Source: Eledone cirrhosa (taxonomy: Eukaryota). Taken from it: 64,000 nucleotides of DNA. This document shows, piece after piece, positions 3,873 to 4,902 of the stretch. Each line of letters opens with the position of its first letter. Position 1 is the stretch's first letter. The stretch is taken from assembly GCA_964016885.1 (NCBI GenBank), contig OZ024747.1:24862001-24926000 (forward strand). Reading direction: 5' to 3'. Position numbers and translations under genes: made by a program. The notes below the pieces were generated by a model. That model did not search any database. It saw only the letters and a list, made by a program, of their open reading frames with translations, and was not told where the DNA came from.

Positions 3873-4386
3873 ATGTAAGTATGTATGTATACGTACATAC
3901 ATATATGTATACAGACGTACAGTAGCATGCATATATATATATATATATATATATATACATACAGGTACACATACATATATGTACGTATCAGTTTAGCGGA
4001 CGCTTATTATAGCGCCCGCTTTGTTCGTTTGTAAACAAACTGAACAGCCTGAATTTATGCCGTACGGTGTTAAGGCAACCACATCACCTTTTTGTTCAAC
4101 ACTGACACAGGAACGATGTACTAGTTTCAAGCTTGTTAGCTATCATCAGCATCGTATACCCTTCTGCCAGATGGTTGAACGTTCGAAAGTATATACTTTC
4201 CTTATGGAAATTAACGGCTGAGCAGCCTAATTTGCATATCGAGTGAGTCCGGCCAGGCGTACCGAGAACGACAAGTTGTAATAAAATGAAACGAAATTTC
4301 ATTTCTCACTCTTAGTACGGCACTTACTTAAATGTAAGTATGTATGTATACGTACATACATATATGTATACAGACGTACAGTAGCA
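3873..4386 (-). mobile_element. Non-autonomous HHR-bearing (retrozyme-like) element, copy 1: one monomer plus ~55-nt redundancy
   Basis: Reverse complement of 4387-4902 but differently permuted. The sequence atgtaagtatgtatg...cagtagca occurs at 3873 and again at 4332 (period 459). No credible ORF; contains an HHR. Confidence 0.8.
4113..4155 (-). ncRNA. Type I hammerhead ribozyme (minimal, palindromic stem III)
   Basis: Minus strand reads acgatg-CTGATGA-tagct-aaca-agctt-GAAA-CTAG-TA-catcgt. Confidence 0.85.
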
Positions 4387-4902
4387 ATTTCGTTTTCGTT
4401 TTCATTTTATTACAACTTGTCGTTCTCGGTACGCCTGGCCGGACTCACTCGATATGCAAATTAGGCTGCTCAGCCGTTAATTTTCATAAGGAAAGTATAT
4501 ACTTTCGAACGTTCAACCATCTGGCAGAAGGGTATACGATGCTGATGATAGCTAACAAGCTTGAAACTAGTACATCGTTCCTGTGTCAGTGTTGAACAAA
4601 AAGGTGACGTGGTTGCCTTAACACCGTACGGCATAAATTCAGGCTGTTCAGTTTGTTTACAAACGAACAAAGCGGGCGCTATAATAAGCGTCCGCTAAAC
4701 TGATACGTACATATATGTATGTGTACCTGTATGTATATATATATATATATATATATATATATATATATATATATATATATATATGCATGCTACTGTACGT
4801 CTGTATACATATATGTATGTACGTATACATACATACTTACATTTAAGTAAGTGCCGTACTAAAAGTGAGAAATGAAATTTCGTTTTCATTTTATTACAAC
4901 TT
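4387..4902 (+). mobile_element. Non-autonomous HHR-bearing (retrozyme-like) element, copy 2, head-to-head with copy 1
   Basis: ttcattttattacaactt occurs at 4401 and again at 4885 (period 484, with a longer internal TA tract). Contains an HHR. Confidence 0.8.
4536..4578 (+). ncRNA. Type I hammerhead ribozyme (minimal, palindromic stem III)
   Basis: acgatg-CTGATGA(4542-4548)-tagctaacaagctt-GAAA(4563-4566)-CTAG-TA-catcgt. Predicted cleavage is after 4572. Stem I extends further (ctggca/tgtcag, gttcaac/gttgaac). Confidence 0.85.

Follow-up and report, generated by a model that had tools for sequence, protein, structure and literature searches.

A two-armed hammerhead repeat in the Eledone cirrhosa genome and its probable insertion by paired Penelope-type priming on one RNA circle

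Positions 3873–4902 of a 64,000-nt stretch of Eledone cirrhosa DNA (GenBank assembly GCA_964016885.1, contig OZ024747.1, positions 24,862,001 to 24,926,000 of the forward strand; hereafter the window) hold two arms of one ~460-nt monomer, which point apart from each other within a long (TA)n tract. The locus raises the question of how two copies of a small repeat came to lie head to head, each longer than one unit and each starting at a different point of it. Previous work proposed that Penelope-like elements (PLEs) reverse-transcribe retrozyme circles into tandem cDNA (Cervera and de la Pena 2020, PMC7229834). A later preprint linked retrozymes to PLE pLTRs, its discussion favouring unequal crossover as the means by which they multiply locally (Li, Clavereau and Pollet 2026, bioRxiv 10.64898/2026.07.22.740005). 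Judged from its sequence, the window insert is a two-armed, putatively non-coding hammerhead repeat, i.e., a non-LTR retrozyme, with the hammerhead motif, dispersed tandem units and self-paired monomer of retrozymes and with the inverted copy, one-sided tail and (TA)n target preference of PLE mobilisation. Two Penelope-type reverse transcriptases (RTs) probably copied one RNA circle from both sides of a DNA break, because the arms end at two fixed sites and because the arms of related copies share editing-type scars.

The window insert and its repeat unit

Monomer position 1 is the base 3' of the predicted hammerhead cut, and the reference is one 460-nt unit of an array at another genomic site. 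Arm B (3873–4386, minus strand) is 1.12 monomers long, running from monomer 192 round to 246, and ends with a short 3' end, without a tail, followed by (TA)n. Arm A (4386–4902, plus strand) comprises 1.06 monomers, from monomer 280 round to 306, and has a long 3' end, with a tail, again followed by (TA)n. The arms meet head to head at a junction (4386–4399) where they overlap by one base, 4386, and where arm A opens with a duplication of 6 nt. The initial annotation had the copies diverge at 4386/4387, which holds to within one base, 4386 belonging to both arms and the plus arm starting one base earlier. Its estimates of the overrun past one unit, ~55 nt for the minus copy and ~25 nt for the plus copy, came out at 55 and 27 nt. 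As it had said, both arms start away from the cut site (4572/4573 on the plus strand, 4119/4118 on the minus). The flanks are (TA)n microsatellite targets on the left (1427–3872) and on the right (4903–6399). An ORF with RT and GIY-YIG domains, the mark of an autonomous PLE, was not found in the insert, whose entire 1,030 nt consist of repeat, with microsatellites on either side.

Over the 367 nt of the main block, the window arms match at 364. They differ at four sites in all, monomer 36, 287 and 372 in the minus arm and 267 in the plus arm, and their internal (TA)n runs are of unequal length; the four differences, each confined to one arm, look like later changes or copying errors. Each arm contains twice a stretch that is present once in the other, and neither includes all of the other. 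By count from the arm alignment, ~425–450 bp of a putative read-through transcript would be able to pair, in agreement with the ~450 bp of double-stranded RNA predicted earlier. An older relative of the family lies at 23461–24227 (plus strand), ~81% identical and 1.8 units long, with a short-type 3' end followed by (TA)n. A repeat search of the whole window was dominated by TA tracts and by a 32-bp satellite, which occupies 36210–48762 in ~392 copies with 95% matches.

Insertions of this 460-base, putatively non-coding repeat number in the thousands, the window insert among them. A 37-nt ribozyme core has 10,333 exact matches in the genome, and these are not chance matches, since the reversed control gave 0. 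They recur at 460-nt spacing, in units that are tandem, dispersed and without LTRs; the unit has an internal (TA)n, and its indels vary across subfamilies. Subfamily motifs were found 4,508 times for one young subfamily, 213 times for another and 43 times for the window's own.

The predicted ribozyme is a minimal type I hammerhead motif at 4537–4577 (plus strand), with the cut placed after 4572; the arm B copy is at 4114–4154 (minus strand), the cut lying between 4119 and 4118. By inspection its parts are a 5-bp stem I, CUGAUGA, a 4-bp stem II, GAAAC, a 2-bp palindromic stem III and GUA, and stems I and II are present in the computed fold. Copies vary least in the core, which has 0.3% non-majority bases vs 4–9% in the variable linkers. 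Two points speak against the hammerhead reading: stem III is just 2 bp, and the window has no Rfam match at the gathering score. With E values up to 10, the Rfam search added no more than miRNA matches driven by microsatellites and a weak match to HH9 (E 0.041; 19.3 bits vs a gathering score of 52). Minimal hammerhead motifs of this kind can act as dimers.

Folded as a circle, the monomer reaches −158.7 kcal/mol (z −8.8, 40 shuffles), with 68% of its bases paired. A long hairpin at monomer 129–240 (4701–4833, plus strand; arm B copy 3882–3990, minus strand) holds the internal (TA)n; it has a fold z of −4.2, and the repeated A>G variants cluster within it. The tail of arm A is the 60-nt segment between the family's two fixed 3' end sites (4843–4902, plus strand), each of which is marked by a small hairpin.

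A candidate U6-like upstream promoter was found at 4454–4506 (plus strand; arm B copy 4185–4237, minus strand), comprising a conserved octamer at 4454–4461 and a TATA-like palindrome at 4491–4506. The block is among the most conserved parts of the monomer, and both motifs also occur, at −76 to −78 and at −31, upstream of 3/3 distinct U6 genes of the Eledone cirrhosa genome, with an octamer-TATA spacing of 45–47 there vs 41 in the monomer. A Pol II snRNA promoter is not supported by the comparison with U1 promoters, in which the octamer is absent at the U6 position (5/5 loci compared). The block is put forward from its motifs as a candidate promoter only. The U6 genes include a tandem cluster with ~1.8 kb spacing (G000:C19:31.78-31.84 Mb), and U1 genes are clustered in tandem with 2.67 kb spacing (C2:180.97-181.0 Mb and C1128). 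Newt satellite 2, as cited in PMC2220036, is likewise a tandem repeat that combines a hammerhead with a candidate internal promoter of snRNA type. The comparison differs in that the putative retrozyme promoter is proposed from two motifs common to the U6 genes of the same genome, and in that the unit's runs of at least four T would be problematic for Pol III read-through.

Fixed 3' ends, dispersed 5' ends and the joints between arms

The wider survey rests on 122 inserts counted from 135 mapped stretches, at loci chosen by motif rather than at random. The 13 stretches excluded were four segmental duplicates, one continuation of the L080 insert, five complex arrays and three incidental or old copies. 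Two arms were present in 72 of the 122 inserts, always head to head under the pairing rule applied, and a single arm in the other 50. The 3' ends fall into two classes. Long-class ends lie at monomer 303–306 in 83 of 91 cases and short-class ends at 241–250 in 73 of 81, and (TA)n is found within 30 nt of 169 of the 172 readable 3' ends. Both ends were readable in 55 two-armed inserts, every one of which combines a long with a short end (A+A 0, B+B 0); in the other 17 of the 72, an end is broken or falls outside the extracted sequence. The 5' ends, by comparison, are spread round the unit, with 1/110 within 5 nt of the predicted cut, and arm lengths range from 0.1 to about 15 units.

The initial annotation had read the two copies as circular permutations, and had proposed that dispersed starts with lengths above one unit would speak for a circular template and fixed termini against it. 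Mapped on the monomer, the copies bear out the dispersed 5' ends and the long arms, but the 3' ends are fixed, so the expectation of dispersed termini fails for one of the two ends. Because only the 5' ends vary, the apparent permutation comes down to two fixed RT starts plus random 5' truncation. The idea of a circular or multimeric RNA template gains from arms of up to ~15 units and from the seamless passes described below; free permutation does not survive the fixing of the 3' termini at two sites.

A palindrome of this kind might also be produced by fold-back during sequencing or by misassembly. The window junction at 4386 was spanned by no read, as such an artefact would have it, but the test is uninformative, the repeat being masked and the reads reduced-representation. 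Against an artefact, the palindrome is asymmetric, its arms start at different positions and differ at four sites, and both end at the family's two fixed sites. Further, 72 of the 122 inserts are two-armed with different junctions, and raw Illumina reads from another, independent study contain head-to-head joints at other positions. We regard an artefact as exceedingly improbable.

The two arms of an insert vary in length independently of each other (Spearman −0.11, p 0.42), and either may be the longer; strongly unequal examples are L082, with 0.13 + 2.93 units, and L043, with 2.70 + 0.36. Among 55 junctions, 33 were resolved, 21 had an unresolvable overlap and one was a palindrome artefact. 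An overlap of at least 2 nt was present at 17 of the 33 resolved junctions, vs 17% for random joins. Four inserts (L040, L157, L160 and L163) have an additional internal join or inversion beside the main junction.

Relation to Penelope-like elements

The paired ends have a counterpart in coding elements of the same genome. A GIY-YIG search gave 10,596 candidates, the best 150 of which were scored, and RT and GIY-YIG were both matched in 9 of the 15 ORFs scanned. In the C-termini listed for coding RT + GIY-YIG elements, a CxxxxCxxC linker precedes the endonuclease; this linker marks the Neptune and Nematis clades in the portion of Craig et al. 2021 (PMC8557442) used here. Both palindromic coding inserts with readable ends (2/2) have TA flanks and one long and one short end ~50–60 nt apart, so that one end carries a 50–60 nt tail and the other has none. 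They are near-perfect RT + GIY-YIG palindromes (L108:1850-7080, 98.6%; L116:3260-6575, 99.7%), and their 3' regions contain minimal hammerhead-like motifs, one with an altered core. Neptune-like families were considered as the partner of the retrozyme, but tail motif resemblances were weak, the order was different and no sequence link appeared among the families compared. In a search for kinship with the pLTR of an autonomous PLE, 29 GIY-YIG loci from the best 150 of the 10,596 had, by blastn, no similarity to the retrozyme termini apart from two separate nearby retrozyme copies.

Published descriptions of PLEs, in the sections consulted, agree with this layout. PLEs are known for an inverted, 5'-truncated copy together with a one-sided tail (Craig et al. 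2021, PMC8557442), and Frangieh et al. 2024 (PMC11167929) report a PLE protein that cuts and extends both strands and whose RT starts at two internal sites bounding the tail, a dimer being predicted. The retrozyme inserts share with PLEs (PMC8557442, PMC11167929) the inverted 5'-truncated copy beside the 5' end, the tail at one end only and (TA)n as target, together with the presumed pair of RT starts on either side of the tail and the presumed AT-rich cleavage of both strands. They differ in that the retrozyme is putatively without an ORF and its arms are multi-unit rolls of a small monomer. Its tail is 60 nt long vs 30–40 in published PLEs, and the PLE tail is described there as present 'often' or in 'a fraction of copies', vs a long and a short end in 55/55 readable two-armed inserts here.

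L1 twin priming, in which both DNA ends prime RT on one RNA and leave a head-to-head 5' inversion, has a similar outcome. There, however, the second primer binds at an internal site that varies, and overlap between the arms is small; in the retrozyme inserts neither start varies, and the overlap can reach several units.

Not every retrozyme arm is paired with another. In 7 of the 50 single-arm inserts the arm adjoins, head to head, the 3' end of a different element, and two RNAs may thus be usable per insertion. In L150, L172 and L039 the arm is joined, without a TA spacer, to a 3'-terminal fragment of a coding Neptune-like element ending in (TA)n; the end types are long + short in L150, which has no single-unit mutations, short + short in L172 and long + long in L039. 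These three joins are either two-RNA insertions or deletions between neighbouring inserts. Similar joins in L038, L059, L077 and L183 involve two other repeat families, one with a GC hairpin before its (TA)n and one with a hammerhead-like motif.

Such chimeras, the inverted geometry and the junction microhomology could all be accommodated if the second arm arose by fold-back or template switching of one cDNA, or if the arms came from two unrelated RNAs. Fold-back is at odds with the unrelated arm lengths and 5' offsets and, as a general route, is contradicted by L082 and L043. Nor is template switching supported at the window locus, because neither of its arms, each incomplete relative to the other, can be a fold-back copy of the other. 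Two unrelated RNAs, as a rule, would leave neither the private variants common to both arms nor the strict long/short pairing. Together these routes seem very unlikely to have produced the two-armed inserts. The earlier comparison with PLE 5' inversions from template switching is thus half upheld: the Penelope link stands, coding elements having the same layout, and template switching is not supported, the arm lengths being independent and the window arms mutually incomplete. Priming of Penelope type from both DNA ends is highly probable, whether the template was a circle, a multimer or a monomer copied with jumps.

The template and its editing-type variants

Wherever arms pass the predicted cut site, they do so seamlessly in 298 of 304 crossings; the other six are five single substitutions and one small indel. 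Multi-unit arms would also result if the template were the cut linear monomer and the RT jumped, at every pass, from one end to the other, within a molecule or between sister molecules. Jumps between molecules would in addition explain single-pass edits and the haplotype switches of L134 (94G in passes 0–4, not in 5–7) and L084. They predict mostly single-pass edits, however, and the 5' ends do not pile up at the cut (1/110), nor are bases gained or lost there beyond background (6/304 non-seamless). End-to-end jumps by R2-type RTs usually add non-templated bases. A ligated circle fits the seamless passes better than end-to-end jumps, and the jumping route is accordingly judged improbable.

Strand-biased A>G within a duplex is the mark left when ADAR-edited RNA is reverse-transcribed, and A-to-I editing was among the checks proposed with the initial annotation. 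Variants were scored at sites with at least two passes, each locus against its five nearest loci, which gave 104 variants present in every pass, 402 in a single pass and 17 in some passes. On the RNA strand, A>G and T>C stand at 31:10 among the all-pass variants (p 8e-4) and at 33:40 among the single-pass variants, and 21 of the 31 all-pass A>G variants have T as the 5' neighbour. In the long hairpin the ratios are 19:1 for all-pass variants, in 13 loci, and 13:10 for single-pass variants (Fisher p 0.005). The check thus turned up strand-biased A>G scars. Pairing between the arms is unneeded for this signal, because it maps to the monomer's own hairpin. Monomer position 196 is altered in four loci of different subfamilies. 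The window insert itself carries no all-pass A>G.

Several observations tie the arms of an insert to a common source. Both arms belong to one subfamily in every locus with variants listed, and 33 rare all-pass variants in 20 loci are common to both arms, 15 of the 33 being A>G. The arms agree in internal microsatellite pattern in 30 of 53 inserts vs 51 of 265 nearest-locus comparisons, and L136 has the identical pattern in 9/9 units. L075 carries 196G in 6/6 passes, including both passes of a 1.69-unit arm. The internal microsatellites have G interruptions in 55 and C interruptions in 13 of 101 loci, which are not independent, given shared descent; flanking microsatellites have 38 of each. An all-pass edit in both arms implies one edited monomer read repeatedly, here or at an ancestral insertion. 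Repeated variants may come from unsampled source loci, so that the A>G at any single locus need not be a fresh edit.

A rival template, copied with the same two-ended Penelope priming, is a linear multimer that was transcribed from a source array of uniform units and left uncut; the uniformity of the units would then derive from the source or from later homogenisation of the DNA. Seamless crossings and dispersed 5' ends fit this template equally. Unprocessed RNA was the main in vitro substrate of the anole PLE, which did not need hammerhead cleavage, according to the portion of Frangieh et al. 2024 (PMC11167929) used here. One variant of L185 is shared in register between the arms but is missing one pass later, both arms of L080 show a 3-unit pattern, and hairpin single-unit A>G are in mild excess (13 seen vs 7.5 expected, p 0.04), which means that some edits are absent from some passes. 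In L052, L154 and L182, variants occur in several passes of one arm only. These partial-pass variants, in all five loci, fit multimer templates or later DNA turnover. An edit on one unit of a multimer, however, would first show in one pass, and the hairpin A>G are near all-or-none per locus, with 19 all-pass, 0 partial and about 5 excess singles. The 1.69-unit arm of L075, with 196G in both passes, cannot have grown from a shorter arm by unequal exchange. A multimer template is, on these grounds, rather unlikely.

We favour, as the likely origin of the two-armed retrozyme inserts, two-ended priming by a dimeric Penelope-type RT on one circular RNA. Transcription would start from the octamer/TATA block, and the dimer RNA would cleave itself by way of its palindromic stem III and then be ligated to a circle, while ADAR would edit the long hairpin of the monomer RNA. 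The dimeric RT/endonuclease would cut a (TA)n tract and prime at the two DNA ends so made, one subunit beginning at ~306 and the other at ~246, and the RTs would run round a single circular RNA, giving multi-unit arms. Both cDNAs would stop at random points and their ends would be joined by microhomology. The stricter proposition, that each insertion is the fossil of one RNA, an asymmetric Penelope dimer having acted on a single ADAR-edited circle at sites 60 nt apart, with both subunits rolling from opposite ends of the double-strand break, is tentative and falls a little short of an even chance.

Retrozymes and the Penelope tail are already published; genomic evidence for paired-end, two-armed retrozyme inserts appears to be new. 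Our search of open-access main texts found no report of the two-armed, paired-end layout or of editing scars in retrozyme copies. The family resembles metazoan non-LTR retrozymes (PMC7229834; bioRxiv 10.64898/2026.07.22.740005) in its tandem, putatively non-coding units, which are a few hundred nt long and carry a type I hammerhead, and also in its low GC, strongly self-paired monomer and co-occurrence with PLEs. It differs in its two-armed inserts, fixed paired ends and editing scars common to units. The word 'inverted' occurs 0 times in the available main text of the 2020 paper (PMC7229834), and the available text of the preprint (10.64898/2026.07.22.740005) describes monomers, dimers and multimers, with no two-armed layout.

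The origin of Penelope inverted copies with a one-sided tail, and the use of retrozyme circles as insertion templates, are stated to be open in the parts of the cited literature consulted. The end rule can be counted, a long end being paired with a short one in 55/55 inserts, and together with the A>G barcode it makes both questions testable from the genome alone and in vitro. The family also points to RNA editing copied back into germ-line DNA at scale. If each insertion is indeed the fossil of one edited RNA, the strict long/short pairing would explain the inverted-copy-plus-tail signature of Penelope elements at large, and A-to-I editing would be a main, heritable source of sequence change in the family, at thousands of genomic sites.

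Two minor observations concern the passes within arms. L080 and L133 (G000:C1:69.578-69.587 Mb) belong to an insert of about 4 + 15 units, in which the 3-unit pattern, a short microsatellite with 440T two passes later, has two instances in one arm and a single one in the other; it reflects either a multimer template or later DNA exchange. In L084 and L043, tail variants are present in all later passes and missing from the first-copied tail.
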